64,000 nt of DNA. Source: Planctomycetota bacterium. GTDB taxonomy: Bacteria; Planctomycetota; Planctomycetia; Pirellulales; Pirellulaceae. The stretch spans positions 104,156 to 168,155 of the forward strand of contig JABAAE010000012.1 in assembly GCA_014238905.1 (NCBI GenBank), given 5' to 3'. The notes under the pieces were generated by a model, which saw only the letters and a list, made by a program, of their open reading frames with translations, searched no databases and was not told the DNA's origin. The position numbers and the translations under genes are program-made. This document shows positions 4,728-46,405 of this stretch, one piece after another (within the stretch, counting starts at the first letter, position 1; every line of letters begins with the position of its first letter).

Positions 4728-5540
4728 CTATTTTTGAGCTGGTGCAGCCTTGGAGGCGTCTTTCTCGAAACTGACAGGAACATTCTTCATCAATTCAAGA
4801 GATCTTGGATTGCTGAAAACTATTTCATCATCATATTCATAAGTTGGCTTTGTGCGGTGGGCCGCCAACGATTTTCGTATCCGGGGAAATCCGATTCGAT
4901 TCCCCGCAAACCTGACACCGTCGTAAATTGTGCCGTGTTGTAAAGGACCAGCTCCCAAGAACCAGGTATCTTTGGCGGTGCTATGGGAAACCAGCGTCCC
5001 CGATTGCCAAATGGGTTGTCTGCTTTCCCGGTAGTAGGCGAAAACACTGATTTTTGCAGCGCTAAACTGCGAACTGTTCTTTGCTAAGGAAATTTCCGGT
5101 AGCAATGGTATTGCTGGTGCATTGGAGACAATAGACGCCGCCGTGCTGATCGCTTGACTGGTTGGAATGCCCACCGTAATCTCATGGCCATCGGTTCCTA
5201 GCGTGCCCACCCGCGGTTCAACAATGATCTCCGCAGATTCTTTAGCGTCCTGAATGAGGCAACCTGCTGCAGTGAGTTGCTGACGAAGACTGCTTATCAC
5301 GTACTGTGAATTGACAAAGCCTGCGGCTTTAACCGGAGCAATAAAGGAGACGTCGAGGAAAACGGTTTGTCCGGCGAGCGGTTCAAAGCTGATCTGACTA
5401 ATCACCCGGTCAACCGAATCTGACATCAGTAATTGCTCAGTAGCAGACCGACTATTGGTCGTACCACAGCCCGACAATACGCTGACCAACGTCGCGATTG
5501 TCAAGAAAACGATCGAATTGAAGTGATTTTTTACGTTCAT
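4728..5540 (-). CDS. Hypothetical lipoprotein
   Basis: ORF 4728..5555; the likely start is MNVKNHFNSIVFLTIATLVSVLSGC (lipobox LSGC). No recognisable catalytic motifs. Confidence 0.55.
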   Translation of the reverse strand: MNVKNHFNSIVFLTIATLVSVLSGCGTTNSRSATEQLLMSDSVDRVISQISFEPLAGQTVFLDVSFIAPVKAAGFVNSQYVISSLRQQLTAAGCLIQDAKESAEIIVEPRVGTLGTDGHEITVGIPTSQAISTAASIVSNAPAIPLLPEISLAKNSSQFSAAKISVFAYYRESRQPIWQSGTLVSHSTAKDTWFLGAGPLQHGTIYDGVRFAGNRIGFPRIRKSLAAHRTKPTYEYDDEIVFSNPRSLELMKNVPVSFEKDASKAAPAQK

Positions 5541-24602: not shown

Positions 24603-24762
24603 TTCGAGGTGGATTTTTTTCGGAATCCTCCTCTCGGTGATACCGATTGTTTTCTAACGTTACTGGATTAAAGAGACGGTTACGGAAATAAAGAAGGCGT
24701 CAAAGGATTAATTGGAAGTTGGGTCAGTCTCAAGGTTTGGGCAGTTTTCTAAAGGAAATAAA

Positions 24763-25746
24763 ATGAAATTAAGTTGGATGGTTTTTTGCTTGGTCTTTTC
24801 CTTAGCGGCCGCGGATTCAATTCTTGCTCAGCCTGGTGGCCCGGGTGGTCCTGGTCAGCAAGGTGGCCGCGGTGGACCTGGTTTTGGTGGTCAAGGTGGT
24901 GCCGGTGGTCAGCAGCGTGGTGGTCAGCAGCGTGGCGGTCAGCAGCGTGGCGGTCAGCAGCGTGGCGGTCAGCGTGGACCCGGTGGTCCTGGTTTTGGCG
25001 GCCCCGGGGGTCCTGGTTTTGGTGGTCCCGGTGGTCAAGGTGGTCGCGGTTTTGGCGGTCCCGGTGGTCAAGGTGGTCAAGGTGGTTTTCGCCCCTCGCC
25101 CAGCGTATTAATGGGAGCATTGGATGCGAATCAGGACGGTCAAATCTCCAAAGATGAGCTGAGAAACGCAGCGGCTGCCTTGGCAAAGCTTGACAAGAAT
25201 AGAGATGGAATGTTGACCGCCGAAGAATTAGTTCCAGCTGGTATGCAGGCCGGTGGTGGTCGCGGTGGTCCTGGTCGCGGTGGTCCTGGCGGCGGTGGTC
25301 CTGGTGGTCCTGGCGGCGGTGGTCCTGGTGCTGGAGGTCAAGGCGGAGCCGGTGGGCAGTTTGACGCACAGCAAATGGTCGACCGTTTTTTTGCGAATAT
25401 GGACAAAAATAATGACGGAAAATTGAGTAAAGGTGAAGTGCCCGAACGGATGGCAAACATGATCGGTCAAAATGACGCCAATAAGGATGGCCTTGTGGAT
25501 AAAAAGGAAATGATGGCTGGGCTTGCAAAAATGGCAGGTGGTCGCGGTGGTCCTGGTGGTCAAGGTGGTCGCGGTGGCGGACCAGGTGGCGGTGCTGGTG
25601 GTCAAGGTGGTCGCGGTGGCGGACCTGGGGGCGGACCTGGGGGCGGTGCTGGTGGTCAAGGTGGTCGCGGTGGCGGACCTGGTGGAGCCGGAGCCGGAGG
25701 CGGTGGCGGTAAAGGCGGCGGTGTGCGAAGACCCAATTTTGGGTAG
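24763..25746 (+). CDS. Secreted glycine-rich protein with four EF-hand calcium-binding loops
   Basis: ORF 24712..25746; the likely start is the ATG at 24763 (MKLSWMVFCLVFSLAAADSILA; RBS aaaggaaataaaATG). EF-hand loops: DANQDGQISKDE, DKNRDGMLTAEE, DKNNDGKLSKGE, DANKDGLVDKKE. The spacers are GGPGGQGGRGG/GGQQRGGQQRG low-complexity tracts. Confidence 0.75.
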   Translation: MKLSWMVFCLVFSLAAADSILAQPGGPGGPGQQGGRGGPGFGGQGGAGGQQRGGQQRGGQQRGGQQRGGQRGPGGPGFGGPGGPGFGGPGGQGGRGFGGPGGQGGQGGFRPSPSVLMGALDANQDGQISKDELRNAAAALAKLDKNRDGMLTAEELVPAGMQAGGGRGGPGRGGPGGGGPGGPGGGGPGAGGQGGAGGQFDAQQMVDRFFANMDKNNDGKLSKGEVPERMANMIGQNDANKDGLVDKKEMMAGLAKMAGGRGGPGGQGGRGGGPGGGAGGQGGRGGGPGGGPGGGAGGQGGRGGGPGGAGAGGGGGKGGGVRRPNFG

Positions 25747-28945: not shown

Positions 28946-29168
28946 GGCGTTCCGGTGTTGATTAAGGTTGAACGGTAGCGAGCCTGACGCTGGTAGCAGA
29001 AACCAGGATCTATTCGAAATCGCACCCTGGATCTTCGGCCCTTTTCGGCGATGGGCGGCAACGCACCACACCCCTAGCGTTATCTATGATACGGTTGAAC
29101 ACTTAACAATCCAATATCGTTCGCATCATTGTCTAACCACTTTGGAAATATCAAGGATCGGCTACCGC

Positions 29169-29708
29169 ATGCAAAACCACGGACCTTGGAAAATATTACA
29201 TACCGATTCGGTTTACCGTGATCCTTACGTGGAAGTGACCAGGGATGATGTCATCCGTCCGGATGGAAAACCCGGTACCCATGTCAAAGTATTTATGAAG
29301 CCGGGGGTTTCCGTTCTTGCGATGGATGCTCAAAAAAACGTCTACCTGACCCACGAGTTCCACTATGCCATCGGCCGCTATTCGACCGAATTGGCAAGTG
29401 GTGGAATCGAGAAGGGTGAATCGGCTCTTTCTACCGCTCAACGCGAATTGCGCGAAGAATTAGGGATTGTCGCCAACGACTGGCTGGATCTTGGGAGCGT
29501 CCATCCGTTCACGACTATTATTGAATCCCCAACCCAATTATATCTGGCAACGGATCTTACCTTTACCGAAAGTGCACCCGAGGGTACCGAGCTGATTGAT
29601 TGTGTTAAGATGAAACTCTCGGAGGCTATTGACAAAGTGCTTGCTGGAGAAATTTTTCATGCACCCAGTTGTGTGGCGATTTTAAAATCGGCGACGCTAG
29701 TCAAGTGA
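29169..29708 (+). CDS. NUDIX hydrolase (ADP-ribose pyrophosphatase-like)
   Basis: ORF 28968..29708; the likely start is the internal ATG at 29169 (MQNHGPWKIL). This avoids overlap with the divergent TlpA-like gene. Nudix box GGIEKGESALSTAQRELREELGI. Confidence 0.75.
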   Translation: MQNHGPWKILHTDSVYRDPYVEVTRDDVIRPDGKPGTHVKVFMKPGVSVLAMDAQKNVYLTHEFHYAIGRYSTELASGGIEKGESALSTAQRELREELGIVANDWLDLGSVHPFTTIIESPTQLYLATDLTFTESAPEGTELIDCVKMKLSEAIDKVLAGEIFHAPSCVAILKSATLVK

Positions 29709-30008
29709 AACCCATCTGCTTTGATGGATAGTCATTGCCCGGTGACTTCTCAGCCGGGAATCGCCTTGTTAGAGCGTATGAGTCATGGTGGCGGTTGCAT
29801 TCTAAAGTTGCAATTACCGTCGTCTTCGGTACTAATTGGCCGAAGGGGTAATGTCCCGAAAATGCAACCAATGGAATGTGCCTCCGGTGAGACTTTGCTA
29901 ATCGGTTTTGGATAATCAGGAAAAGGAAATTTTCCCAATATTTTCCTTTGTGAGTCGAATACCATCATTATGAGTCAGACCGTCAGGGTCCTGTCAGGAG
30001 AAACTAAC

Positions 30009-30677
30009 ATGCAAATCGTATTCGAATGGTTTCAACCCATCAATTTGCCCGCGACGGTCCTTTTGATCCTGTGCCTTTTTTACTGGCTATTGGTCATCTC
30101 CGGAGTTTTGGGCATGGAATTATTTGATCTGGATGTCAATTTGGACACCAGCATCGATGGTTCCATGGACGTTGCTGACATAAGTGGCGCTGGCTTGATA
30201 TCCCGTGTGTTCCACTTTCTTCATATTGGGGATGTCCCCTTTATGATCGTTTTTTCAATTTTTTCGTTGTTTTTCTGGTTGTTCACTAATGTCGTTAATC
30301 ATACTTGGAATGCAAATCACGATTGGCTGATTGGGTTGATTGTGTTCGTGACGGCTATGGTCGGAGCGCTTGGGGGTACGAAGTTGATCCTCCAGCCCTT
30401 CCTGGGTTTTTTCAGGAGTTTTGACCATCGCGTCAAAAAAATGAATGAACATGTAGGTGAAAGCTGCATTGTGGATACGGCAGATGTTTCTGACAAATTT
30501 GGTGAAGGGCGGATTCAGACCGGCGAGTCACCAGTGATTATTCAAATCCGCAACCCGAATCGCTTCAAATTCGTTCGCGGTGATTCAGCGGAACTGGTTC
30601 GTTTTGACCAACGAGGTGGTTTTTTTGAGGTCCGCCCGATTGGCGAGAAAATGGATCCCGAGACGCAATCATCTTAG
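30009..30677 (+). CDS. NfeD-like/YqiJ-like membrane protein (OB-fold C-terminus), first gene of flotillin operon
   Basis: ORF 29970..30677; the likely start is the ATG at 30009 (caggagaaactaacATG). Three TM segments, then C-terminal OB-fold GESCIVDTADVSDKFGEGRIQTGESPVIIQIRNPNRFKFVRGDSAELVRFDQRGGFFEVRP, as in E. coli YqiJ. Confidence 0.7.
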   Translation: MQIVFEWFQPINLPATVLLILCLFYWLLVISGVLGMELFDLDVNLDTSIDGSMDVADISGAGLISRVFHFLHIGDVPFMIVFSIFSLFFWLFTNVVNHTWNANHDWLIGLIVFVTAMVGALGGTKLILQPFLGFFRSFDHRVKKMNEHVGESCIVDTADVSDKFGEGRIQTGESPVIIQIRNPNRFKFVRGDSAELVRFDQRGGFFEVRPIGEKMDPETQSS

Positions 30678-30745
30678 AGAGTAACGTCATCACACATCTT
30701 AGAGAGTAACGTCATCACACATCTTAGAGAGTAACGTCATCACAA
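30670..30745. repeat. 25-bp tandem repeat x3 (atcttagagagtaacgtcatcacac) beginning on the stop codon of the NfeD-like gene
   Basis: Three contiguous copies: two perfect, then one 24-nt copy with a degenerate tail. The TAG stop (30675..30677) lies inside copy 1. Confidence 0.85.
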
Positions 30746-30907
30746 AGAGTAATGTTGGAGACCGGGAACTTGGTGGCCAGTCGAAATATTCGGATTGACC
30801 ATCCTAATCCGAATTTCCCGTCTATTTTATTGAAAACTGACGGTGTTCTGCCCTGCAATTAAAAAATATGGCGCATAGTTTAACATCAAACCATTGGAGA
30901 TATTAAT

Positions 30908-33094
30908 ATGCCATCAATACCGAGTTTTCTTCTTGGACAAGGTGACGCGGGTCTAGCAAATGTGTCGGGATCCCTGATTCCGCCATGGGTCATGTACACG
31001 CTGACGACGATTGCCATCTTGGTCGTTCTGACATTCGGTATTCTTGCGTTGTACGCGTATTTCTTCAAAAAGGTGGCTCCCGGAACCGCATTGGTGATTA
31101 CCGGTCGAGGAAAGATGGATGTGACGTTCACAGGTAAAATTGTGATCCCCATTTTTCACCGCTATGAAATCATGGACATATCTGTCAAACGAATCGAGAT
31201 CGATCGGAGTGGAACGGACGGTCTGATCTGTCAAGACAATATTCGGGCGGATATCAAGGTTGCCTTCTTTTTGCGAGTCAACAACAAGATCGAAGCGGTG
31301 TTGGATGTAGCTCAGAGCTTGGGCTGTCAGCGGGCATCTCACCAGGATGCACTGGAAAGTCTCTTTGAACCAAAGTTCTCGGAAGCATTGAAATCGGTTG
31401 GTAAACAATTCGACTTTGTGGATCTGTATAACTCGCGAGAGACGTTTCGTGATGAGATCAAAAAAGTCATTGGTCAAGATCTTAATGGATTTTTTCTTGA
31501 CGATGTTTCCATCGACTATCTGGAGCAAACGTCTTTGGAATTGTTGGATCCCAACAACGTACTCGATGCAGAGGGTATTAAGAAAATTACTGATTTGACC
31601 GCCCAGGAGCAGGTGCGAGCAAACTTTATCCGCAGGGAAAAGGAAAAAACGATCACCAAGCAGGATGTAGAAGCTCGGGAAGCGATTCTGGAGTTGGAAA
31701 AGCAGCAAAAAGAGGCAGAGGAAAAGCAACAGAGAGAGATCAGCGAAATCAAATCTCGTCAACGATCGGAGGCGGAGATCGTTTCGCAGCAGGAACGGCA
31801 ACGAAGTGAAACGGCCAGGATTTCGGCGGAAGAAGAGATCTTTGTGGCCGAAGAAAACAAGCAACGATCAGTCATTGTTGCGGAAAAGAGCAAGGTTCGG
31901 ACGGATCAGGTCGAGACCGAACGAGTCGAAAAAGACCGTTTGCTTGAGGTTACCGAACGGGAGAGGGTCGTTTCCCTTGCCGATATCGACAAAGACAAGG
32001 CGATCGAAGTTGAAAAGAAGCACATACAGGATGTCATTCGCGAGCGGGTAATGGTCGAGCGAGCGGTCGTCGAAGAAGAGGAAAAAATCAAGGACACAAA
32101 GGAATTCGCATTTGCTGACCGATCGAAGCAGGTTGCGGTGACCAAGGCAACTGAAGAAGCCGAACAACGATTGGTGAAAGAAGTTCAGGCAGCCGAGGCA
32201 GAGAAGCAATCGGCGACCAAACAAGCGGAGACCGTCGTGATCAATGCCGAAGCGGATCGATCTGCATCGGAAAAGAAGGCTGACGCCAAAAAAATGTTGG
32301 CTGATGCGAGTCGGGTGGAAGTCGCGTCTACGGGCTTGGCTGAAGCGGAAGTCTTGCAAAGCAAAGCCGAGGCGGAGGCTCGCGGTGATGAAGCGAAGGC
32401 AACGGCGTTGCAGAAAGTGGGTCTGGCCGAGGCCACAGTACTCCAGAAAAAACACGAAGCCGAGGCAAAAGGTCAGGAAGCCTTGGCAACCGCAACGGAG
32501 AAAACCGGAACCGCAGAAGCGACGGTCCTGGAATTGAAATTCTCGGCGGATGCCAAGGGAATCACTCAAAAGGCTGAAGCCATGAAGCTGTTTGATGGAG
32601 TTGGAAGGGAACATGAAGAGTTCAAGATCCAGCTGAACAAAGAGAAAGATATCGAATTGGCCGCAATCGATGTTCAAAAAGACATCGCTGAAGCTCAGGC
32701 AGAGCTGGTTGGCGAGGCATTGAAAACCGCGAAAATCGACATCGTCGGTGGAGACAACAAGTTCTTTAACAGTTTGGTTGGCTCGATTACCGCAGGTAAG
32801 CAGGTGGACCGTCTGGTTGGAAATAGCGAAGTGCTGGGTGATGTTAAGGAGACATTTTTTAACGGGAACCCTGATTTCTTCAAGTCGCAGCTGCAGGAGT
32901 TTGTTGATCTGTTCGGCGTCAGTTCAGATGATCTGAAAAATCTCACGATTGCAGGATTGATCGGTAACATGTTGAGCCAGTCCAGCAACGATGTTGGAAT
33001 GATTGGGCAGCTTCAAAAAATGCTGAATAATGCGACCCAAATGGGCATCGCCAATAACTCAGCGAGCAGCCTGAATCTTGGTCCAAAGAAGTAA
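30908..33094 (+). CDS. Flotillin family protein (SPFH/band-7 domain plus long coiled coil; YqiK-like)
   Basis: N-terminal TM, then SPFH block TALVITGRGKMDVTFTGKIVIPIFHRYEIMDISVKRIEIDRSGTDGLICQDNIRADIKVAFFLRV. A ~350-aa E/A/K/Q-rich coiled coil follows, then a C-terminal globular tail. RBS ggagatattaatATG. The antisense ORFs 30953..31864 and 31868..32677 are codon-bias artefacts. Confidence 0.85.
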   Translation: MPSIPSFLLGQGDAGLANVSGSLIPPWVMYTLTTIAILVVLTFGILALYAYFFKKVAPGTALVITGRGKMDVTFTGKIVIPIFHRYEIMDISVKRIEIDRSGTDGLICQDNIRADIKVAFFLRVNNKIEAVLDVAQSLGCQRASHQDALESLFEPKFSEALKSVGKQFDFVDLYNSRETFRDEIKKVIGQDLNGFFLDDVSIDYLEQTSLELLDPNNVLDAEGIKKITDLTAQEQVRANFIRREKEKTITKQDVEAREAILELEKQQKEAEEKQQREISEIKSRQRSEAEIVSQQERQRSETARISAEEEIFVAEENKQRSVIVAEKSKVRTDQVETERVEKDRLLEVTERERVVSLADIDKDKAIEVEKKHIQDVIRERVMVERAVVEEEEKIKDTKEFAFADRSKQVAVTKATEEAEQRLVKEVQAAEAEKQSATKQAETVVINAEADRSASEKKADAKKMLADASRVEVASTGLAEAEVLQSKAEAEARGDEAKATALQKVGLAEATVLQKKHEAEAKGQEALATATEKTGTAEATVLELKFSADAKGITQKAEAMKLFDGVGREHEEFKIQLNKEKDIELAAIDVQKDIAEAQAELVGEALKTAKIDIVGGDNKFFNSLVGSITAGKQVDRLVGNSEVLGDVKETFFNGNPDFFKSQLQEFVDLFGVSSDDLKNLTIAGLIGNMLSQSSNDVGMIGQLQKMLNNATQMGIANNSASSLNLGPKK

Positions 33095-33231
33095 TGATGT
33101 TTGGGATGCCGGCTGGTTGATCCAAATCAGCCCGGCGATGTCCATCCTGTCTCCGGCAGGATTCGAAACAAGGGTGATTTGGCCCAGGCGTTTCGACGAT
33201 GTGAGTTCAATCCAATTTCTTTGAATTACCA

Positions 33232-36200
33232 ATGGCTGAAGACCCTGAACAATCTGCTGAATCCGCTGAGCCGCAACTCGAGCGATCTACCTACGAAATC
33301 ATTCGTAACAGGTTGCAAAGTCATGCTCAGGAGCTTCGTTCTCGCTTGGGACGATTGAACGATGAGCGGCGAGAGGTCTTTGGTTCGATAGAGACCAAGC
33401 TCGTGGAAACCGCTCGTATTACCACCGACCATAATTGCGTTCCTCGCGACATGGTGCCCATTGGCGATCGGTTTATTTTCGGATTCAATGTTCTGATTGG
33501 CTTAAGGTCCGAAATTAACCTTAATGACGTCTTCGCCGTCCAGAAATTTGAGAATCAAAGCTTTCATCCCGAAGATCTGACTCTCCTGAACCAGGACAGC
33601 CTGCGTCATGATTTCAAGGAGATTTACAAGTATTACAAAACAACTACGTTCGCCAAATTTCATGTAATAGCGCCAAATGTCTACATGGTTTTCAAGGTGG
33701 GCAAGTCGGCACGCGACGTCAAAGCCCTGAAATTCCTGATGGACGGCGACCAGTTAACCTATCTCGATAATCGGAATGATCACGAGGTGGTTTTTCCACC
33801 GAAGCACGGTTTTCAATGGACCAGGACTCGCCGGGATTTGCACCGAAGTGGTCAACATCCTCACATCTCCGTGGATGATAGGGTTTTTGTGGAAACGATC
33901 GGTGGGGATCTAACCGTCAAGGTCGAAGATAACACTGAAGCTGGCACAGGGATTTATTCGGAACCGGTCGATGATCCCGACCAAACGTTGGACGATGCTG
34001 AGATTTTTTATGCGATCGTCGGAAATATCATTTTGCTTAAGATCCGGCCCTTCAAAGAAGAAGTTTTTCGATACCTTGTTTTCAATGAAAAAACCCAATC
34101 GGTGACGCGACTGGATACGATTGAAAATTCCTGTGTGTTATTGCCAGAAGACCACGGTCTTATTTTTTCCAACGGTTATTATCTGCAAACCGGCGAGTGG
34201 AAGATTTTCGAGAGTGACATCAGGGATCTGGTTTTCGAAAAACGGATTGCTTCTCCCAACGGTGAGGACTACCTCTACGTTTTTTACAATCAGGATTCAG
34301 GCGATTATGTCATCCTTCCCTACAATATGATTGAGCAGCAGGTGCTCACTCCTATCGTCTGCAATGGTTATTCACTTTTTGATGACGGGCATCTTGCGTT
34401 TTTCAAATCGGAGGGTAATCCACAAAAGCACCATGCAATGCAAATCTGGCAAACGCCGTTTGTGGGGCAGGATTTTGAAGCAACAACACAATCCGATAGC
34501 TATCTTTTCAAGCTGGGGAACAAGGATGTCGTCAGGGCGATGTCCGAATGCCATGAAATCATAGGACTGATTGAAAAAGACGATTCCTATGCCAATCTTT
34601 ATGTTGACCTTGTCAAGAAAACCACGGACGTCCTGGATTCCTATTTTTGGATTTCAAACAAAGAGACTTTTGATCTCGGGGAGACACTTGAGGAAATCAA
34701 GGCGGCTGCTGTTGCGGCAGTTGATGAATTCGACAAGGTCGTGCGGGTACGGAAAAATACCAATACCCGGTTTGCAGAGTCGTCTGGCAAGGTTGGCAAA
34801 GTGCTGTCGTCGGCTGCCAGTCGTATGTTTCGACACATTGACGAATTTGTTGATTCCCTTGCCGAGTTGCGTGTTGTCCGCGGAGAGGTCATCTCGTTAC
34901 GCGAACTGAAATATGTTGATCTGGCTGCTGTTGACCGGCTTGAAAAAGATGTCGAAGAGAACACTTCCAGGATCTCCAAGCGGTGTGTTGATTTTTTGTT
35001 GCGTGAGGATTCGCTTGCACCTTATGTCGCCCGTGTTCAATCCCAGCGGGAAGCGGTTGAGGCCTTGGAGAAGGTCACCACTGCCAAAAAGCTTGACGAA
35101 GAAATTTCTGCCGGTTCGACAGAGCTGGAGATGTTGATTGATATTGTCAGTAATTTGGATATTGATGATGCGACGCAACGCACGCGGATTATCGACAGTA
35201 TCTCGACCATTTACTCCCAGCTTAACCAGGCTCGCGCCTCACTGAAGAAAAAGACCACCGAGTTGCTCTCTGTTGAGGGAATTGCCGAATTCAACTCGCA
35301 GATCAAGTTACTTAGCCAGGCGGTTGTCAACTATCTTGATGTTTGTGACACACCGGAGCGGTGTGACGAGTACCTCACCAAGATGATGGTGCAAATCGAA
35401 GAGTTAGAAGGGCGATTTGCAGAGTTTGATGAATTTATCATCCAGCTGTCGGAAAAACGAGAAGAGGTTTACCAGGCTTTCGACACCCGGAAAATTGGAC
35501 TGGTCGAATCTCGAAACAAACGGGCAGCGGCGTTGATGAGCGCCTGTGATCGTATTCTCAGCGGGATCAAGACCCGGGTTAGTAACTTCGACTCGGTGAA
35601 CGAGATCAACAGCTACTTTGCCGCTGATTTGATGATCGAAAAAGTCCGGGATATTATTGAGCAATTGAAGGAACTTGACGACAACGTCAAGGTGGACGAT
35701 ATCCAGAGCCGATTGAAATCGACTCGAGAAGATGCGGTTCGCCAATTAAAAGACAAACAGGAATTGTTTGTCGACGGTGAAAACGTCATCAAGTTTGGAA
35801 AACACAAGTTTTCTGTAAATATCCAGACGCTCGATCTGACGACCGTTCTCAAGGATGGTGAACTCTTTTTTCACCTGACCGGCACAGATTTTATGGAGGC
35901 GGTTACCGACGAATCCCTATTGGCTACCCGAGACGTTTGGGACCAGGAGATCGTCTCAGAAAACTCCAGTGTTTATCGGGGAGAGTACCTCGCTTATCAA
36001 CTCCTGAAAAGCATAGAGGCCAAGGGGCCTGCTGCGGCCAAGGAGGTCTTGGGTTTGGAATCCGAATCGCTGACCGATTACGTTCAGAAATTTATGGCTC
36101 CCCGATACGCTGAGGGGTATGTAAAAGGCGTTCAGGATCACGATGCGGCTCTGATTCTTTACCAATTACTCGACTTGAAAGCCAGCATCGGTTTGCTTCG

Positions 36201-38694
36201 TTACCATGTTGATGCAAGGTCGCTGGCCACTTTGTTTTGGCTCGACTTGCGGCATGAAAACAGGAAAATGCAAGACGCTATTCTTGCCAGAATCAAGGCC
36301 CATGGAGCGATTGGGAAGCTATTTGAGGCATCCAAAGGTCGATCGACTCATGTTGCTCAACTAGATTCATTGATAGGTGAATTTTCAAAAAAGGTGGACT
36401 GCTTTGAAAACGCATTGTCGACTCAGGCGGCCAATTTTCTATACGATCTATTGTCGGATTCAGGAAAGTTTTTTGTTGCTTCGGGAACGAATGAACTGGT
36501 CAAGTCATTTTTAGGGAAATTGAAGCGACGAAATTACGAAGCTGATTTCGAAAAACTGGTTTCAGAGATCAAGACCAGTCGGATTGATCAATTCCTGTTA
36601 GTCCGGGATTGGATCGCATCATTCATCATGCAGTTGGGCGAGGAATCGGATAGGGAGTTTGTGAACGAGGCGGCCGTCATGATCATGAGCCCCAACGAAC
36701 CCCAGGTTCTTCCCGGAAATGCCACTCGGATGCTGACTGGTCTGTTGGGCAATCACCCGGTTGCTCAGGTGAAGGAATACTCACTCGATTTCAACAATTT
36801 TGTGCTTCGATTGGAAAACTACGAGAAGACAGTGGTTCCCTCGTACAACCAGTACATCGGTCTGAAGAAAAGAATTGTTGCGGACAAAAGAGAGTTACTG
36901 CGGTTGGAGGAATTCAAGCCGCGGGTGTTGACATCCTTTGTCAGGAATAAACTCATTGACGAGGTCTACTTGCCGATGGTAGGGGACAATCTCGCCAAAC
37001 AAATCGGTGTGATCGGTGATCAAAAACGGACCGATCTGATGGGCTTATTGCTTCTGATTTCTCCACCCGGTTATGGTAAGACCACGTTGATGGAATATAT
37101 TGCCAACCGCCTGGGCATTACCTTTATGAAAATAAATGGCCCGGCTATTGGGCATCAGGTGACTTCTCTGGATCCAGACGAGGCTCCAAACGCCAGCGCC
37201 CGAGAAGAAGTGATCAAATTGAATTTGTCACTTGAGATGGGTGACAATGTAATGATTTACCTTGACGATATCCAGCATTGTAATCCGGAGTTTTTGCAGA
37301 AGTTTATTTCGCTCTGCGATGGTTCACGACGCATCGAGGGTGTTTATAAGGGCAAGACCCGTACCTATGATCTCCGGGGCCGCAAGGTGGCTGTGGTGAT
37401 GGCTGGGAATCCCTATACCGAAAGCGGCGAGAAATTCCAGATTCCGGATATGCTTTCCAATCGTGCGGATACCTACAATCTCGGCGATGTGATTGGTGAT
37501 AGTGCTGCTAGTTTTGAGCTGAGTTACCTGGAAAATTGTTTGACCTCCAATGCCAGTCTTGGGGTGCTTCATTCCCGAAGTCGGAATGATATTTACAGCA
37601 TCATTCACATGGCGGAGCAGGACGAACCCCAAGGAGAGGGTTTGGAGGGTAATTATTCTGTTGAGGAGATCAACGAGTTGGTCGCAGTGATGAAGAAACT
37701 GCTGGTCATTCGAGATGTGCTATTGAAAGTCAACCAGCAGTATATTGCCTCGGCCGCTCAGGCAGACGAGTATCGTACCGAACCCGCTTTCAAGCTGCAG
37801 GGATCCTATCGCGATATGAATAAGCTGGCTGAAAAAGTAGTTCCAGTCATGAATGATAAAGAACTCGATACTCTGATCTTCTCGCACTTTGAGAATCAAG
37901 CCCAAACCCTGACGACCGGCGCCGAAGCGAACCTCTTGAAATTCAAGGAGCTCATCGATGACTTCTCCGAAGAAGAAGAGGTGCGATGGAACGATATCAA
38001 AAGAACGTTCAAACGTAATTTGCTGCTGGGTTCGGCGGGATCAGGCGATGACAAGTTTAGTCTGGTGATCGCCCAATTAACTACATTCAGCGAGGGCCTT
38101 GCTGAGATCAAGAATACGCTTGATTATGGCGTAGCGGCGATTGGCGGCGGAAAAAAGAAAAAGAACGAGCCCACCTATCTGGAAAAAGTTGTCACCGAAC
38201 AGGCAGGGAATGCAATGCAGCATCTGGCTGAATTCAACCAGACGCTAACGGCAATCAAGGATGTCCTTTCCAATGTTTCGGACTTGGAAAATTTGAATCG
38301 GATTGCCGGCAGTTTGGATGTTGTCAAGGAGGCCTCGTCCTACCAGATCGACGAATCCAAGGCGATCAAGCTCGGCAAAAGGCCTTACAAAATAAGTGTC
38401 GTCAACAAGATTCCCACGGCCTTTCTAGATGTCATTTCGGCGCAGTTCACGGTTCTTCAGTCCTGGGTAGAACCAATGGCGAAATTGCAAACGCTCGATG
38501 CCGACCAATTTCGCCGGGCTGTTGAGGCGACTTTCGAACGGTACAAAGAGCTTGTCCAACAGGTCGGGGATCTTTCTTCCAGTCCTCCAGACAATGATGC
38601 CAAGGTCGATCCCCCTCTTCCCAAGACAAAGGATTCCACCGAGGGCTCAGATGACAATTCTCTGCCGGGTGGTGTTTTCTTTCCCGAAGATTAG
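33232..38694 (+). CDS. Giant (1820 aa) uncharacterised protein with a MoxR/AAA_5-type ATPase core; third gene of the flotillin operon
   Basis: A single uninterrupted ORF that starts 137 nt after the flotillin stop. Beta-rich N-terminal ~450 aa, then a ~800-aa predicted helical/coiled region. The AAA_5-like core has Walker A LLLISPPGYGKTT (~37045), Walker B VMIYLDDIQH, a sensor/NP motif VAVVMAGNPYTESGEKFQIPDMLSNRADTYNLGD, then ~380 aa helical C-terminal with an acidic tail. No vWA/MIDAS motif seen. Confidence 0.8.
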   Translation: MAEDPEQSAESAEPQLERSTYEIIRNRLQSHAQELRSRLGRLNDERREVFGSIETKLVETARITTDHNCVPRDMVPIGDRFIFGFNVLIGLRSEINLNDVFAVQKFENQSFHPEDLTLLNQDSLRHDFKEIYKYYKTTTFAKFHVIAPNVYMVFKVGKSARDVKALKFLMDGDQLTYLDNRNDHEVVFPPKHGFQWTRTRRDLHRSGQHPHISVDDRVFVETIGGDLTVKVEDNTEAGTGIYSEPVDDPDQTLDDAEIFYAIVGNIILLKIRPFKEEVFRYLVFNEKTQSVTRLDTIENSCVLLPEDHGLIFSNGYYLQTGEWKIFESDIRDLVFEKRIASPNGEDYLYVFYNQDSGDYVILPYNMIEQQVLTPIVCNGYSLFDDGHLAFFKSEGNPQKHHAMQIWQTPFVGQDFEATTQSDSYLFKLGNKDVVRAMSECHEIIGLIEKDDSYANLYVDLVKKTTDVLDSYFWISNKETFDLGETLEEIKAAAVAAVDEFDKVVRVRKNTNTRFAESSGKVGKVLSSAASRMFRHIDEFVDSLAELRVVRGEVISLRELKYVDLAAVDRLEKDVEENTSRISKRCVDFLLREDSLAPYVARVQSQREAVEALEKVTTAKKLDEEISAGSTELEMLIDIVSNLDIDDATQRTRIIDSISTIYSQLNQARASLKKKTTELLSVEGIAEFNSQIKLLSQAVVNYLDVCDTPERCDEYLTKMMVQIEELEGRFAEFDEFIIQLSEKREEVYQAFDTRKIGLVESRNKRAAALMSACDRILSGIKTRVSNFDSVNEINSYFAADLMIEKVRDIIEQLKELDDNVKVDDIQSRLKSTREDAVRQLKDKQELFVDGENVIKFGKHKFSVNIQTLDLTTVLKDGELFFHLTGTDFMEAVTDESLLATRDVWDQEIVSENSSVYRGEYLAYQLLKSIEAKGPAAAKEVLGLESESLTDYVQKFMAPRYAEGYVKGVQDHDAALILYQLLDLKASIGLLRYHVDARSLATLFWLDLRHENRKMQDAILARIKAHGAIGKLFEASKGRSTHVAQLDSLIGEFSKKVDCFENALSTQAANFLYDLLSDSGKFFVASGTNELVKSFLGKLKRRNYEADFEKLVSEIKTSRIDQFLLVRDWIASFIMQLGEESDREFVNEAAVMIMSPNEPQVLPGNATRMLTGLLGNHPVAQVKEYSLDFNNFVLRLENYEKTVVPSYNQYIGLKKRIVADKRELLRLEEFKPRVLTSFVRNKLIDEVYLPMVGDNLAKQIGVIGDQKRTDLMGLLLLISPPGYGKTTLMEYIANRLGITFMKINGPAIGHQVTSLDPDEAPNASAREEVIKLNLSLEMGDNVMIYLDDIQHCNPEFLQKFISLCDGSRRIEGVYKGKTRTYDLRGRKVAVVMAGNPYTESGEKFQIPDMLSNRADTYNLGDVIGDSAASFELSYLENCLTSNASLGVLHSRSRNDIYSIIHMAEQDEPQGEGLEGNYSVEEINELVAVMKKLLVIRDVLLKVNQQYIASAAQADEYRTEPAFKLQGSYRDMNKLAEKVVPVMNDKELDTLIFSHFENQAQTLTTGAEANLLKFKELIDDFSEEEEVRWNDIKRTFKRNLLLGSAGSGDDKFSLVIAQLTTFSEGLAEIKNTLDYGVAAIGGGKKKKNEPTYLEKVVTEQAGNAMQHLAEFNQTLTAIKDVLSNVSDLENLNRIAGSLDVVKEASSYQIDESKAIKLGKRPYKISVVNKIPTAFLDVISAQFTVLQSWVEPMAKLQTLDADQFRRAVEATFERYKELVQQVGDLSSSPPDNDAKVDPPLPKTKDSTEGSDDNSLPGGVFFPED

Positions 38695-39004
38695 TCGTTC
38701 GGTTAAGAGGAAGGGTGCTGCTTAGCGAGAACTGATGCAGCATGGCCGGTCGTATGGGTTGCCAACGGTTAAAAACGGTACGACTGCTACAGTATTCCGT
38801 TTTTCGCCTCGGCTAACGGAATTCATTGGAAAACCTGCACGGAATTTTCAGGCAAACACTTAGAAAATAGGTAACCTATTCGAGGAATGATTGGATAGGA
38901 ACCACTCCTTGCAGGAAATTTTCCGTACGGGAAGAATAAGGTTCGATCTCGATTTTGTCTTGCGAATGGAATTGCGACTTTCAAGGTTTGAAGTGAGCAG
39001 TACC

Positions 39005-39667
39005 ATGTCAACAAGTTCTAAATATGGATGGGCGATCGGCCTGATCATGATCGGACTCGTACTGGCGATGCCATTTCGCAAAGCGGGCAGTCAATCGCTG
39101 GAGCCTCAAGGGGAAATGGCAGCAGGCCCATCTTCAGCGCCTTCGATGGATTCAACTTCGCCCTCAATTGAGGATGCAAAACTGGATTCAAAATCGCTTT
39201 TGCCAAATAGTCCTCCTTCGGTCAGTGTTATCGATCTCGAGGAAAAGTCGAATCCTGTCGTGGAACCCCCATCACTTTCGATGCCTGATTCATTTCAGAC
39301 CAAGCCGACGGTGGAGATTGTTCAAAGCGACCAAGCCGCTTCGCTACGATCGGTTGATTTTTCCAATGCCATGCCCAACCGTTCCATTCCGAATTCAGTC
39401 GGGCCTTACCGGATGAAAAAGGTTCCAGCTTCTAGATTTCTGCCGGCCAGTCAATCCTCAGGGACTGCCGTTATCTCCAATGCCAGCCAATCTAGGAATG
39501 TCATTCAGTATCGGCTTCGCGACGGTGATACATTGCGGTCTATCGCCGCCCGCTATCTGGGCAACTCAAATCGTTACGAGGAAATCTTGGCTGATAATCG
39601 GCACATTCTCACTAACGGGGAAGGTTTTCTTCCCATCGGGCAATACATCACCATCATCGCCCAGTAA
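39005..39667 (+). CDS. LysM domain membrane protein
   Basis: ORF 38891..39667; the likely start is MSTSSKYGWAIGLIMIGLVLAMPF (TM). A Pro/Ser-rich linker follows. C-terminal LysM: IQYRLRDGDTLRSIAARYLGNSNRYEEILADNRHIL. Confidence 0.7.
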   Translation: MSTSSKYGWAIGLIMIGLVLAMPFRKAGSQSLEPQGEMAAGPSSAPSMDSTSPSIEDAKLDSKSLLPNSPPSVSVIDLEEKSNPVVEPPSLSMPDSFQTKPTVEIVQSDQAASLRSVDFSNAMPNRSIPNSVGPYRMKKVPASRFLPASQSSGTAVISNASQSRNVIQYRLRDGDTLRSIAARYLGNSNRYEEILADNRHILTNGEGFLPIGQYITIIAQ

Positions 39668-41741: not shown

Positions 41742-43184
41742 CTATGCCAGGACCGGTTTTACCACATTTCCATGGACATCGGTCAATCGATACCAGCGAC
41801 CCTGATGTTTGTAGGTGAGTCTTTCGTGGTCAATTCCCAAAAGGTGGAGGATCGTAGCGTGGAGATCATGCACATGAACTCCGCGGTCGGTGACATTGTA
41901 ACCATAGGCATCCGTTTGCCCGTAGGAAAGACCCGGTTTGACTCCGCCCCCGGCCATCCAGATTGAAAAACAACGAGGGTGATGGTCGCGTCCAAAGTTA
42001 GCGCCCAGTTTTCCTTGACAATAATTTGTCCGACCAAATTCCCCTCCCCAGATGACCAAAGTGTCATCCAGCAAGCCGCGTTGTTTCAAGTCCTTCAAGA
42101 GAGCGGCCGAAGGTTGGTCCGTTTCCTTGCATTGCCCTCGAATTCCCCCTGGGAGTCCGCCATGCTGGTCCCATCCTGGGTGGTATAATTGAATGAAACG
42201 CACGCCGCGTTCGGCAAGACGCCTGGCGAGCAAGCAGTTGGCGGCGAACGAACCAGGTTTTTCGACGTCTGGTCCGTAATCCTTGAGAACATGTTCGGGT
42301 TCGTCCGAAAAATTGGTGGTCTGTGGAATCGAAGTTTGCATTCGAAAAGCCAATTCGTATTGGGCGATGCGATCTTCGATGGCTGGGTCAAAAGAATTCG
42401 CCAGCTGATGTTGGTGTAGCGATCTTAAGGAGTTGAGCATTTCTCTCCGACTTTTCGTTGATACACCAGCCGGGTTGTTCAGGTAAAGAACCGGGTCCCT
42501 GTCCGCCCGAAATCGGACCCCTTGGAATCTGGATGCCAAGAATCCGGCTCCCCATAATCTTGAAACAAGCGGTTGCCCACCTTTGTTTTTGGTGACCATG
42601 ACCACAAAAGAGGGCATGTTCTCGTTTTCGGACCCAAGACCATAGTTGAGCCAAGACCCCATGCTGGGTCGTCCCGGAAATTGTGACCCTGTTTGCATGT
42701 GCGTTACTGCCGGGCCATGGTTGATGGCTTCAGTGTGTAATGATTTGATAATGCAAAGATCGTCTGCCTGCTGGGCAAGATGAGGAAGGATTTCACTGAT
42801 TTGCTGTCCGCTCTGTCCCACTTTTGAAAATTGAAACGGTGTACCCACCAAAGGTAGACTCGACTGATTACCGGACATGCCCGTTAGGCGTTGTCCTTTA
42901 CGAATACTCTCGGGCAGTTCTTTTCCATTGTCCTTGATTAACTGTGATTTGTAATCGAAAAGATCAAGTTGGGATGGTCCACCACTTTGGAATAGAAAAA
43001 TAACCCGTTTTGCTTTCGCTGGATGGTGGAGTTTTCGTTTGGAATCGGTATTTCCCCAACTCTCGGACTGAAGCAGATGAGCAAGTGCAGTGGTCCCCAT
43101 GCCCATGCCGAAACGGGACAACCACTGGCGGCGGTCCAACTCGGAGGGTGACTCAAAACCGGTGCAATTTTTATTCAGGTTCAT
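41742..43184 (-). CDS. DUF1501 domain protein (sulfatase-like), Tat signal
   Basis: RRQWLSRFGMGMGTTALAHLL is the Tat motif. The body is sulfatase/phosphodiesterase-like DUF1501. It lies directly downstream of the PSCyt/DUF1553 gene on the same strand, the classic Planctomycetes pair. Confidence 0.85.
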   Translation of the reverse strand: MNLNKNCTGFESPSELDRRQWLSRFGMGMGTTALAHLLQSESWGNTDSKRKLHHPAKAKRVIFLFQSGGPSQLDLFDYKSQLIKDNGKELPESIRKGQRLTGMSGNQSSLPLVGTPFQFSKVGQSGQQISEILPHLAQQADDLCIIKSLHTEAINHGPAVTHMQTGSQFPGRPSMGSWLNYGLGSENENMPSFVVMVTKNKGGQPLVSRLWGAGFLASRFQGVRFRADRDPVLYLNNPAGVSTKSRREMLNSLRSLHQHQLANSFDPAIEDRIAQYELAFRMQTSIPQTTNFSDEPEHVLKDYGPDVEKPGSFAANCLLARRLAERGVRFIQLYHPGWDQHGGLPGGIRGQCKETDQPSAALLKDLKQRGLLDDTLVIWGGEFGRTNYCQGKLGANFGRDHHPRCFSIWMAGGGVKPGLSYGQTDAYGYNVTDRGVHVHDLHATILHLLGIDHERLTYKHQGRWYRLTDVHGNVVKPVLA

Positions 43185-43237
43185 AATTTTGGTTTACCGA
43201 TTGTGTTGATTCTTTAATTGTTGATGACTTATCAATC

Positions 43238-46200
43238 TCAGCGCCGCATGATGCATTCATCAAAATTCATGACGGTCTGAATTACCGTTGCCAATGCGGC
43301 GACAGCTGCAGGATCGAGTTGCGAATTAAATGGTCTTCCGCCCACGGAAACAAACTTTTTGGCGGCTTCGAGATTTTCAGAGAAATATTTTTTTTGCGTT
43401 CTCAACAGGGTCGTCAAGATTTTCTTTTCCTTGGCATCTGGGTAACGACTTGTAGATCGCCGAAAGGCTATGGTAATGGGATCTTGCGGATGTTTCTGAA
43501 TTAACTCTTCTGCCAAGACACGAGCAGCCTCGACAAACTGTGGATCATTTAAAAGCACGAAGGCCTGCAGCGGTGTCGCTGTTCGTTCTCTTTTAACGGT
43601 GCAGATTTCCCGTTTGGCAGCATCAAGGGTCATCATCACTGGCGAGGGGCCTGTCCGTTTCCAGTAGGTGTAAACGCTGCGGCGATAAAGTCCCTCGCCT
43701 TTGTCAGGGCCAAGCGGCTTAAAGCTGAGTGCCAGATCATACGGTTTCGCTCCCCCACCGCCCTGCCTCGGGGACAGAAGGCCACTGATCGCCAGCGCGT
43801 TGTCCCTGAGCATCTCCGCTGGTAGACGATAGCTAGAAGCTCTGGCTAACCATGTATTCTGGGGATCTCGTTCAATTAAATCAGGAGTCAGAATGGAATC
43901 CTGTTGATAGGTGGCGGACATCACCAACTGTTTTAAGAGTCTTTTCAGATTCCAGTTGTTGTCGGCGAAATCTGTCGCAATCCAGTCGAGTAACTCCGGA
44001 TGGGTCGGTGGCTGCCCCTGCGATCCAAAATCCTCTGGCGTACGAACCAGGCCATCTCCAAAAAGCATTTGCCAGTACCGATTTACCGTGACCCGGGAGG
44101 TGAGTGGGTTTTCGGGTCCTACCAGCCAGCGAGCCAGTTCCAAGCGGTTTTTTGGGATCTGTTTTGATGAGAATACTGCGGGGATTCCCGGGAAGACTTC
44201 TTCCTTGGGTTGCTGGTAGGAACCACGATGTAAGCGATAAGTGGGCCTCCGTTGTTTTCGATCATTCATCACCATGATCTCGACGATGCCGTCAACCTGT
44301 TGGCTCCGTTGTTTTCTAAGAACTCCCAGCTGCTTTCTGATTTCAAGGTGAGTTGAAGAGACGTGGATCTGAAAAAACTCTTGCCATTTATTTTTTAAGC
44401 GGTCGGGCAAATCAGCTAGGTGGATTTTTTTTGCTTTTTGAAATGAATCGGTTTTGACAAGATTCTCTATTTCCAGACCGCTTAGTTCTCGATCAAAAAC
44501 CTTGAATTCATCTATTTTTCCATCTGTAAAACCACGGTCTCGAAAACGCTCTCCGATGGCGATGTTGTTTCCCCCACCGCCGGTGATGTTCTTGTAAAGA
44601 TGGTCGCGAATCACTTCGCTAGTCAACGCTTGCCCATCCAGAAAAAGTTCCAGACCGGATGCCCGGCTGGACCCGTCGTAGGTCACTGAGACGTGTATCC
44701 ATTTTTTTAATGGAATCTCTTTCCGGGATCGTATCCGAATTGCATTACCGGGCCAGAAATGAATTAATGAAAAACTTAGTTTGCCGTCTTCAATCAGAAG
44801 TTGATATCCTCGGCTGGCAGCATCGGTCCAGGCTCTTGATCGGTGAAAGACAACGGCACGGTCTTTCTTGTCAGCGGTATTCATCCAGAAACCGAAGGAA
44901 AAGGGCTGGTTGCGAGTGAAGTTTCCCGTTTTCAAGGCGATGGCATCGTCTCCACTCAATTGCACTCCCTTTCCTACAGGTCCCGTCACCGACAGATTAG
45001 CGCCACCTTTAAAATCTTCAAAATTTCTATATTCGATGGGTGCGCTAGGCTGGATATTTTCTTTTTGAGTGAACCAATTGCTGAAGGCCGTCGCATCGAT
45101 TTCAAGGGCGGCAAGCTCGGTTTCCTTGGCTTGGATGGTTGATTCCAGCAGGGCTAATTTCTGTTTTTGATCACCGGAGGACATCAACAATGTCGGAGTG
45201 GGGGTGGAGTTGGTGAAATAAGAATATAAACCAGCTTCATCGATATTATTGAAATACGAAAATAGCTGGTAATATTCGGATTGGGTGATCGGATCAAATT
45301 TGTGGTCATGACAACGAGCGCACTCGATTGTCAGTCCGAGGAAAGCGGTGGCAAAGGTATGATTTCGGTCGGCAACATATTCCACCCGGAATTCTTCCGG
45401 TACGCTACCACCTTCGACTTTTTGCGGGTGGAGCCGATTGAATGCGGTTGCCAAGATCTGTTGATCGGTAGCATTGGGCAGCATGTCACCGGCCAACTGG
45501 TGGATGATAAACTGGTCGTAAGGAAGGTTGGAGTTAAAGGACTTGACGACCCAATCTCGCCATGGCCAGACGTGTCTTCCGCGATCGACCTGATAGCCAA
45601 ATGAATCTGAATAACGGGCAACGTCCAGCCACTGGCTGGTTAGCCTTTCACCGAGACCCTCGCGGGCGAGTAGACCATCGACCAGTTTTTCATAAGCGTC
45701 CGGCGACTCGTCAGCCAAAAAACGATCGACCTCTTGATCGGTCGGAGGCAGTCCCAATAAGTCAAATGTCAAGCGTCGAATTAACCTCTCTTTGCTCGCC
45801 GGTCGGTTGGGTTTGACTCCAAGGGTTTCCAGCTTCTGTAGAACAAAACGATCGATTTCGTTCCGGCACCAATCCAAGTGCTCAACAGGAGGTAAAGGTA
45901 CTTTTCCTGGCTTCAAAAACGACCAGTGTTTTTCGTATGGGCTGTCGGCGAGCAACCATTTGCCGATCAGCTGTTTTTCGTCGCTGGAGAGGGATAGTTT
46001 TGAATTTGGCGGTGGCATCATGAAATCTGGATCGTCGCTGTTGATGCGTTGCCAGAGTTTTATTTCCTCAAGGGAGCTCCCTTGGAGTTGTTTTTTTGCC
46101 AGGTCCCGTTGGTCGAGACGCAGGTCGCTTTCGCGGGCGTTTTCATCCGGGCCATGGCATTGAAAACAGCGGTCAGAAATCAGTGGGCGTATATCGCGGT

Positions 46201-46405
46201 TAAAGTGGACGTTGTCGTTGGGGCCAGTAAGAGGTTTACCCTCTTGAGGCGAGCTGCCATGAGTCAGACTTGCCGCAAGGCAGACCCAGAGAAAAACAGG
46301 GAACTGGAAAAGAGACTCAGGGTAATTGAAACGCAAATTCCCTGTTCGTCTCATGGTGACCTTGGCGGATGAACCACTAATTAACAAAAGGCAGCATCTT
46401 GTCAT
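43238..46405 (-). CDS. PSCyt/DUF1549/DUF1553 protein (Planctomycete cytochrome-c-domain family)
   Basis: Haem-binding CFQCHGP within [30 protein letters not shown] is a PSCyt domain. Long DUF1549 and DUF1553 body, 1055 aa. Confidence 0.85.
   Translation of the reverse strand: [1055 protein letters not shown]

Follow-up and report, generated by a model that had tools for sequence, protein, structure and literature searches.

A 64,000-nucleotide stretch of the genome of a Pirellulaceae bacterium (phylum Planctomycetota; contig JABAAE010000012.1, positions 104,156 to 168,155; hereafter the window) carries three co-oriented genes that encode, in order, a short YqiJ-like membrane protein, a divergent flotillin and a giant soluble protein of 1820 amino acids (aa) with a single AAA+ ATPase module. 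A flotillin homologue was found directly upstream of the giant gene and on the same strand at 60 of 64 loci (94%) from eight phyla, and all three genes, the YqiJ-like one included, were found together at 58 of the 64. The adjacency of the flotillin and giant genes is far above chance, and because the flanking genes vary among loci, the three genes appear to move as a unit. The window triad is a Pirellulaceae instance, in abbreviated form, of a known, experimentally uncharacterised operon type. We give a little short of even chances to the proposal that the three genes constitute one conserved functional module, working at the inner membrane, on its cytoplasmic side, with a role in membrane stress. 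The genes are:

29970..30677, + strand: YqiJ/YuaF-type short NfeD membrane protein gene, 235 aa (open reading frame, Pfam, hhalign)
30908..33094, + strand: divergent YqiK-type flotillin (SPFH) gene, 728 aa (open reading frame, profile alignment)
33232..38694, + strand: giant soluble protein gene, 1820 aa (open reading frame, Pfam, secondary structure from AlphaFold2 (AF2) models)

These are the three co-oriented open reading frames (ORFs) that a first-pass annotation of this DNA had pointed out, and its account of their positions, strand and lengths (235, 728 and 1820 aa) holds. The spacers between them measure 230 nucleotides (nt; YqiJ-like to flotillin) and 137 nt (flotillin to giant).

The giant protein has more than 5387 homologues at E≤1e-5. 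To survey their gene neighbourhoods, one genome was taken per species, which gave at least 565 confirmed relatives; 80 loci were kept, and the adjacency counts come from the 64 of these that have 3.5 kb or more of upstream DNA. The phyla covered are Planctomycetota, Bacteroidota, Verrucomicrobiota, Kiritimatiellota, Desulfobacterota, Omnitrophota, Bacillota (Clostridia) and Fibrobacterota. The first-pass annotation had named a comparison of gene neighbourhoods as a way to check its proposed operon, and with flotillin beside the giant gene at 60 loci the outcome was positive. Within the unit, the junction between the YqiJ-like and flotillin genes is tight (median 13 nt, with overlap in 15 of 57 loci). 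The spacer from flotillin to the giant gene has a median of ~122 nt (60 loci), and these two genes overlap in two Clostridia loci. The reverse pairing fails: E. coli yqiJK has no third gene, yqiK being followed by sibD/ibsD.

When this DNA was first annotated, the arrangement was thought to be undescribed. It had in fact been reported, together with its abbreviated form, by Ravi et al. (mSystems 2024, PMC11237479; bioRxiv 2020.09.24.301986), who give the order YqiJ/YuaF, Band-7/flotillin and "beta-propeller + coiled-coil + AAA+ ATPase". In that work the triad is found within CesT/Tir-PspA operons, YqiJ/YuaF is described as a protein with three transmembrane (TM) segments, "abbreviated" operons without PspA are said to be widespread, and a table lists the gene string for Dokdonia donghaensis. 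The Dokdonia string matches the long form that we recovered in Bacteroidota. Twenty Bacteroidota loci have the layout divergent helix-turn-helix (HTH) regulator, PspA (PF04012, 6.5e-35), YqiJ-like protein, flotillin and giant protein, with the regulator found in 18/20 and CesT_Tir_1 (PF22550, 4e-54) preceding PspA in 16/20. Since homologues of the giant protein sit in these long-form operons, the window protein belongs to the family of Ravi et al. The window triad shares the three gene families, their order and their orientation with the published operon, but is without CesT/Tir, PspA and the divergent HTH regulator, and the planctomycete giant protein has an extra C-terminal tail of ~200 aa. 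The published description gives no Pfam name for the giant protein (DUF3686), no motif analysis and no experiments (PMC11237479).

Other PspA linkages among our loci were one at L014, downstream and on the opposite strand, and one weak match at L059 (Phycisphaerae bacterium SG8_4). In the latter, the giant gene is directly followed by a 227-aa ORF (4766-5449) that matches the Bacteroidota PspA profile at E 2e-4; it may represent a second, independent PspA linkage, this time within the Planctomycetota. PspA has also been linked with band-7/FloT and NfeD proteins by Popp et al. 2022 (PMC9239133), and in B. subtilis PspA depends on the SPFH protein YdjI to reach the membrane (PMC8581546), which provides a precedent for an SPFH-PspA connection. 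The first-pass description of the triad as uncharacterised is borne out, as no experimental study of it was found in the searched literature. The same searches returned no paper on DUF3686/PF12458, none linking "DNA repair ATPase" with flotillin, and none joining bacterial flotillin, AAA+ ATPase and operon.

The identities of the first two gene products were settled mainly by profile comparison. The 235-aa protein passes the curated cut-off of Pfam YqiJ_N (E 3.3e-6), and a profile of 26 of its homologues aligns with E. coli YqiJ at an hhalign probability of 97% (E 7e-11, 182 columns). The alignment takes in the membrane part plus the C-terminal OB-like part, so the NfeD-like, YqiJ-like identity given at first pass is confirmed. 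The C-terminal part of E. coli YqiJ carries Pfam YqiJ_OB, a domain that was not called in the window protein at E≤0.01. An acidic, Asp-rich loop follows the first hydrophobic segment. The two parts of the protein are:

30036..30395, + strand: membrane part with three hydrophobic segments (aa 23-54, 80-110 and 117-142; Kyte-Doolittle hydropathy, alignment to the YqiJ N-terminal domain)
30447..30644, + strand: C-terminal soluble OB-like (NfeD-type) part, ~aa 160-225 (hhalign to the YqiJ C-terminal part)

The second gene product is, as judged from its sequence, a genuine yet divergent YqiK-type flotillin, in agreement with the identity first proposed for it. The profile of its family aligns with E. 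coli YqiK at an hhalign probability of 100% (E 1.7e-40, 33% identity, 394 columns) across the TM segment, the SPFH domain and the Glu/Ala-rich coiled coil. The coiled coil also aligns weakly with that of QmcA. Its divergence is evident from the domain searches: the window protein has no Pfam match at E≤0.01, it scores 1e-4 against NCBIfam FloT, and a PDB sequence search yielded nothing useful. Pfam Band_7 detects 2/26 flotillin homologues, plus the N-terminal fragment of a copy in a 99%-identical metagenome-assembled genome (MAG). Pfam Flot (PF15975) is not matched by the window protein, whereas YqiK scores 6e-41, and the family profile aligned with YqiK aa 400-553 (the Flot domain) at a probability of 20%, in a comparison whose sensitivity is limited by the single-sequence target. 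The protein divides as follows:

30971..31078, + strand: single N-terminal hydrophobic anchor, aa 22-57 (hydropathy scan)
31016..32269, + strand: SPFH domain and E/A/K-rich coiled coil matching YqiK, aa 37-454 (hhalign columns)
32270..33091, + strand: C-terminal third, aa 455-728 (columns conserved within the subfamily)

Residues 235-560 consist of 18% Glu, 16% Ala and 12% Lys. Two lysines come right after the anchor, and by the positive-inside rule the bulk of the flotillin would be cytoplasmic. That the C-terminal third might offer a docking surface is speculation.

The giant protein is made up of an N-terminal helix, the DUF3686 domain, long helices, a small beta domain, a helical domain, the AAA+ module, another helical domain and a variable tail. 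A hydropathy scan found no hydrophobic segment in it, unlike its two membrane-anchored partners. Its main parts are:

33331..34647, + strand: DUF3686 domain, aa 34-472 (Pfam E 4e-188)
34501..35751, + strand: long-helix or coiled-coil-like region, aa 424-840 (AF2 helices of up to 58 residues)
35008..35259, + strand: DUF7902, aa 593-676 (Pfam E 8e-28)
36292..36831, + strand: poorly conserved helical linker, aa 1021-1200 (20-26% identity among 75 full-length homologues)
36904..37671, + strand: AAA+ ATPase module, aa 1225-1480
38092..38691, + strand: lineage-specific C-terminal tail, aa 1621-1820 (occupancy 0.07-0.51 and identity ≤12% among the same 75 homologues)

Across phyla the protein is ~50% identical over 1600 aa. 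Among the 75 homologues identity is 36-63% over aa 1-1020 (47-59% over aa 424-840) and 60-82% in the AAA+ module, reaching ~80% in its core. Most homologues from outside the planctomycetes, for example those of Bacteroidota and Bacillota, align only to about residue 1630. The tail beyond this point finishes in a Pro/acidic-rich stretch and is for the most part modelled with a predicted local distance difference test (pLDDT) score below 50. The protein had been described at first pass as built around an AAA_5 ATPase. However, the AAA+ module accounts for ~250 of the 1820 residues, and the largest recognisable unit is DUF3686, which went unrecognised there. AF2 was run on shallow alignments (10-15 sequences at 58-67% identity), giving models with a mean pLDDT of 63.5 for aa 1-1160 and 58.8 for aa 1150-1820. 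In these models the DUF3686 region is all-beta, with paired strands at aa 57-391 at low to moderate confidence, and a small beta unit at aa 853-890 precedes the helical domain. Foldseek matches to the beta region are weak (E≥6e-3), and all are beta-propellers (CyRPA, prolyl oligopeptidase, Ctf4 and the clathrin terminal domain). The modelled fold of DUF3686 is thus consistent with a beta-propeller and agrees with the description by Ravi et al. A search with aa 1-480 returned 768 representatives (50% clustering) at E≤1e-3. Full-length proteins within the 150 best listed measure ~1600-1930 aa and have the domain near the N-terminus, and judged from these 150, DUF3686 seems essentially confined to the giant-protein architecture.

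The AAA+ module carries a set of motifs that was compared in 28 sequences from several phyla:

37060..37086, + strand: Walker A, SPPGYGKTT, aa 1277-1285 (invariant)
37249..37278, + strand: Walker B, VMIYLDDIQH, aa 1340-1349 (D1345, D1346 and the I, Q and H invariant)
37402..37470, + strand: from sensor-1 AGNPY (aa 1391-1395) to the invariant Arg of SNRAD (R1411) (invariant columns)

The general form of the Walker B motif is hhYhDDIQH, in which Asp-Asp replaces the usual Asp-Glu, and the catalytic Glu is missing in every member examined. The invariant motifs and the ~80% identity across phyla imply a working nucleotide site. Given the Asp-Asp motif, the giant protein may be a slow, switch-like ATPase and not a processive motor. 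The AGNPY and SNRAD elements may resemble the MoxR motif NPxExxG...LPxAxxDRF.

Several comparisons bear on the clade of the module. Pfam AAA and AAA_5 each match 28/28 members with similar E-values, the best AAA_5 value being 4e-9. The AAA_5 match covers profile positions 2-127 of 139, that is, the whole domain, and the match to Pfam AAA (PF00004) is limited to positions 1-70 of 131. A match to the classical AAA clade (FtsH, p97, Vps4) over the whole domain was not found, as the second region of homology goes unmatched where the Pfam AAA alignment stops. Alignments to PDB entries of classical AAA proteins and to FtsH extend over 36-40 residues around Walker A, and PDB profile searches returned p97/VCP, Rix7, NSF and RuvB over just 36-74 residues from Walker A to Walker B. 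Against E. coli proteins, the hhalign probabilities were 96% for RuvB, 92% for FtsH and 21% for RavA, all over partial regions. Assigning the clade from the RavA, FtsH and RuvB alignments was rejected, the aligned regions being partial and generic. AAA_3, the model for MoxR proper, matches 11/28 members, all weakly (E≥0.059). NorQ and CbbQ were the top structural matches of the AAA+ model, weak ones from a low-confidence model. A scan of eleven window neighbours revealed no VWA domain, and the three conserved neighbour clusters scanned (PspA, CesT/Tir and the HTH regulator) include no VWA partner. The "MoxR" label originally attached to the protein is therefore not established. "AAA_5-like", on the other hand, is a defensible description given the whole-domain match in all members, although PF00004 scores equally. 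The possible likeness to the MoxR family (NorQ, CbbQ, RavA) consists of the AAA_5 match over the whole domain and the weak NorQ and CbbQ structural matches; the giant protein differs in being five to six times longer, in having Asp-Asp instead of Asp-Glu in Walker B and in lacking a VWA partner.

In the mechanism we propose for the module, the YqiJ-like protein, with its three membrane segments and OB-like domain, and the anchored flotillin would build an oligomeric SPFH platform. We infer that this platform faces the cytoplasm because of the positive-inside rule at the flotillin anchor and by analogy with QmcA-YbbJ, an SPFH-NfeD pair that forms a cytoplasmic cage (as cited in PMC13086221). 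The soluble giant protein would bind to the platform, recruited probably via its beta-propeller-like DUF3686 domain and long helices, and its single AAA+ module, presumably as a ring, would spend ATP to assemble, remodel or recycle membrane-bound polymers. Candidates for these polymers are the flotillin scaffold itself and, where it is encoded, PspA, an ESCRT-III-type protein. Because a flotillin partner is present at 60/64 loci whereas PspA is almost wholly a feature of the Bacteroidota, we favour the flotillin platform as the main place where the giant protein would act and regard PspA as a further polymer, handled where present. Since the window form is an abbreviated version of the PspA/CesT operon, the physiological role would, by analogy, likely be protection and repair of the envelope and membrane under stress. 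A more specific version of this mechanism, which we consider unlikely, makes the giant protein a dedicated ATP-driven assembly/disassembly factor of the bacterial flotillin cage, with PspA as an accessory client in some phyla. If true, the giant protein would be the first enzyme known to recycle an SPFH scaffold, in a role comparable to that of Vps4 for ESCRT-III or NSF for SNAREs, and the invariant Asp-Asp Walker B and unplaced clade would mark a new AAA+ branch with a switch-like cycle.

A different use of the same platform, the main rival to this mechanism, is somewhat unlikely in our judgement. Damaged or unfolded membrane proteins would here be corralled by the flotillin/YqiJ cage, and the giant AAA+ protein would act on these clients, and not on the scaffold, by extracting, unfolding or passing them on at the expense of ATP, which would make it a counterpart of HflK/C-FtsH without the proteolysis. 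SPFH scaffolds are known organisers of AAA+ enzymes, HflK/C-FtsH being an example, and the stretch from Walker A to beta2 is closest in sequence to p97/VCP, Rix7 and FtsH-type unfoldases. S. aureus FloA-NfeD is reported to stabilise unfolded proteins without ATP (PMC11222466), a holdase activity that leaves room for an ATP-dependent partner. Conservation of the neighbourhood applies equally to client processing and to polymer remodelling. However, the giant protein has neither a protease domain nor a membrane anchor, its match to classical AAA ends before the second half of the domain (Pfam AAA positions 1-70/131), and no classical aromatic pore-loop motif was evident on inspection of the 28-sequence alignment. 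The link to PspA operons fits remodelling of a polymer at least as well. In any case, the present data do not separate the two models.

Several observations weigh against the proposed module. At 4/64 loci the giant gene has no flotillin within 10 kb upstream. At 21/60 loci the spacer from flotillin to the giant gene exceeds 400 nt and is filled by unrelated small genes; the two genes are thus set apart in about a third of the loci, and their coupling is not obligatory at the transcript level. Tight coupling of the two genes had been assumed at first pass; with a median spacer of ~122 nt and this number of insertions, the junction is looser than that and seems tolerant of insertions, and an independent promoter for the giant gene is therefore possible. 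PspA and CesT are absent from the 64-kb window, as judged by comparing the Bacteroidota profiles with its six-frame translation, which is what makes the locus an abbreviated form. Vigorous ATP hydrolysis is not assured with an Asp-Asp Walker B, and since the module fits no AAA+ clade decisively, family membership gives no guide as to whether it threads or remodels. Low confidence in the AF2 models meant that they were used for secondary structure only and that the fold searches are indicative only. Finally, the searched literature held no interaction, localisation or expression data for any member of the triad.

The loci without a nearby flotillin and the frequent insertion of unrelated genes at the junction would also fit a giant protein that acts independently of the flotillin pair, for instance in DNA repair, with adjacency reflecting shared regulation or history. 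Its NCBI name is "DNA repair ATPase", the Pfam text for DUF3686 reads "ATPase involved in DNA repair", and hhalign matches the AAA+ module to RuvB between Walker A and Walker B at a probability of 96%. We nevertheless regard such independence as very unlikely. The RuvB match consists of generic P-loop elements only, no DNA-binding or nuclease domain was found in Pfam and NCBIfam scans, and the name is unsupported in the searched literature. Moreover, the neighbours in the extended operons are membrane-stress genes and not repair genes, and some functional link seems needed to account for 94% adjacency in eight phyla when the flanking genes vary. The genes between flotillin and giant include, in some Bacteroidota loci, toxin-antitoxin (TA)-like or transposase-like ones, as might be seen in an anti-phage or other conflict system in which a membrane-associated sensor and an effector with a large nucleoside triphosphatase (NTPase) cooperate. 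Such systems often include large multi-domain NTPases that carry beta-propellers. In this case, the three proteins match only IetA in PADLOC-DB 2.0 (E≥2e-4, ~30 residues at Walker A), no nuclease, protease or pore-former effector domain was recognised with Pfam, and the genes near the triad in the window have housekeeping roles (Dus, IspD, NUDIX, short-chain dehydrogenase). Identity of ~50% over 1600 aa and ~80% in the AAA+ module is also unlike that of fast-evolving defence genes, and a conflict system is, in our estimate, extremely unlikely. Both the DNA-repair and the defence readings thus have little support.

The triad may be set beside several known systems. The first two genes are homologous to E. 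coli yqiJ-yqiK and B. subtilis yuaF-floT (Hinderhofer et al. 2009, PMC2636767) and have the same order, and the pairs share the membrane anchor, the SPFH domain and the EA-rich coiled coil. At 728 aa the window flotillin exceeds YqiK (553 aa) in length; it escapes the Pfam Band_7 and Flot models, and no similarity to the Flot domain of YqiK could be detected in its C-terminal third. HflK/C-FtsH serves as a working analogy, since there too an SPFH scaffold and an AAA+ ATPase are paired at the inner membrane. Its HflK/C cage lies in the periplasm, and FtsH itself is a zinc protease of the classical AAA clade with a membrane anchor. The window ATPase, in contrast to FtsH, is soluble, has no protease domain, has non-ATPase parts six times larger and fits no AAA+ clade decisively. 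A second working analogy is with Vps4 and ESCRT-III, as the extended operons link a dedicated AAA+ enzyme genetically to a membrane-remodelling polymer. Unlike in Vps4, no MIT domain was found in the giant protein, and similarity to classical AAA is confined to the N-terminal half of the module.

A giant ATPase encoded beside one flotillin subfamily in eight phyla offers a concrete handle on the function of bacterial flotillins and on the control of their assemblies. The association predicts an energy-dependent step at the flotillin platform, tied genetically to PspA (ESCRT-III-like) membrane repair. It has been in print since 2020-2024 as a few sentences, and "DNA repair ATPase", a name without support, is still in use for the family. 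What is added here is that the link is quantified (60/64 loci), that the family is tied to DUF3686/DUF7902, and that the conserved and variable parts of the giant protein are mapped, the unusual Walker B included. The triad will be unsurprising to specialists in the comparative genomics of the phage shock protein (PSP) system, but it is among the more concrete untested leads on flotillin assemblies.

Further observations concern individual loci and the spacers. The giant genes without a nearby flotillin are at L012, L026, L045 and L079 (Desulfobacteraceae, Cytophagaceae, Bacteroidia and Pirellula, respectively), where the YqiJ-like gene is likewise missing within 10 kb upstream; the giant gene lies at ~10000 in L012, L026 and L079 and at ~7660 in L045, and the upstream genes are unlike those of other loci. 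Flotillin and giant genes without a detectable YqiJ-like gene occur at L075 (7634-9952), L076 (328-2760) and L019 (5910-7955). The flotillins of L075 and L076, from Verrucomicrobiales and Pedosphaera MAGs, are longer (772-810 aa) and more divergent (E ~1e-100 vs ~1e-200 elsewhere). Genes inserted between flotillin and giant include lipoproteins, an IS200/RAYT-like transposase and TA-like genes, these labels having been read from N-terminal sequences. Examples from Bacteroidota and Verrucomicrobiota are L043 6802-7251, L035 9522-9941, L060 9410-9963 and L019 8085-9383, with small TM proteins among them. A conserved fourth gene in the Bacteroidota gaps was considered and rejected, as their contents are unrelated small genes. 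The corresponding spacer in the window is:

33095..33231, + strand: 137-nt spacer from flotillin to the giant gene (terminator scan, RNA folding)

The terminator scan found no site in this spacer, in line with the first-pass view that the 137-nt gap has no terminator-like structure. Its RNA can form two possible hairpins without a U-tract, and the folding energy is ordinary (z = -1.34). The number of promoter-like sequences equals the shuffle expectation and is thus uninformative, and the spacer sequence is unconserved except in the 99%-identical MAG.

The spacer between the YqiJ-like and flotillin genes contains a perfect 25-bp x 3.0 tandem repeat, CATCTTAGAGAGTAACGTCATCACA, at 30670-30744, which starts 5 nt ahead of the TAG that ends the YqiJ-like gene and contributes 50 nt of this unusually long 230-nt spacer. 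The contig of the 99%-identical MAG has a single copy of the 25-bp unit with one mismatch, and the three copies in the window reflect either a recent change in copy number or an assembly artefact. That Pirellulaceae MAG (L084, GCA_029242285.1, JAQWUE010000551.1, 2660-4846) provides the closest database relative of the giant protein, at 99% identity, and the next relatives are planctomycetes. Its flotillin is split into two ORFs of 407 aa (with the Band_7 match) and 318 aa by a frameshift or assembly error; the window copy is one intact 728-aa ORF.

The remaining genes around the triad are housekeeping or planctomycete-typical: Dus, NUDIX, IspD, short-chain dehydrogenase and a DUF1501 plus PSCyt/PSD1 pair. 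This pair, DUF1501 and PSCyt1/PSCyt2/PSD1 (with Laminin_G_3), lies at 41742-46405 on the - strand, and its Planctomycete-cytochrome-C families are consistent with Pirellulaceae. No tRNA gene and no Rfam family at the gathering threshold was found across the whole 64-kb window. Downstream of the triad, a co-oriented gene at 38891-39667 encodes a 258-aa protein that weakly matches LysM at its C-terminus (E 1e-3, short of the Pfam cut-off) and scores 2e-6 against an NCBIfam LysM protein, below the cut-off of that model; it was rejected as a fourth member of the module, since it is not kept beside the giant gene in other loci. Upstream, a 344-aa protein with several EF-hand motifs is encoded at 24712-25746, and the NUDIX hydrolase gene at 28968-29708 keeps its synteny in the two closest relatives and loses it in distant loci. 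In these two relatives the NUDIX gene was called with NDPSase_N and NUDIX at 179-184 aa, and the window ORF (TTG start, 246 aa) is probably over-extended at its 5' end.

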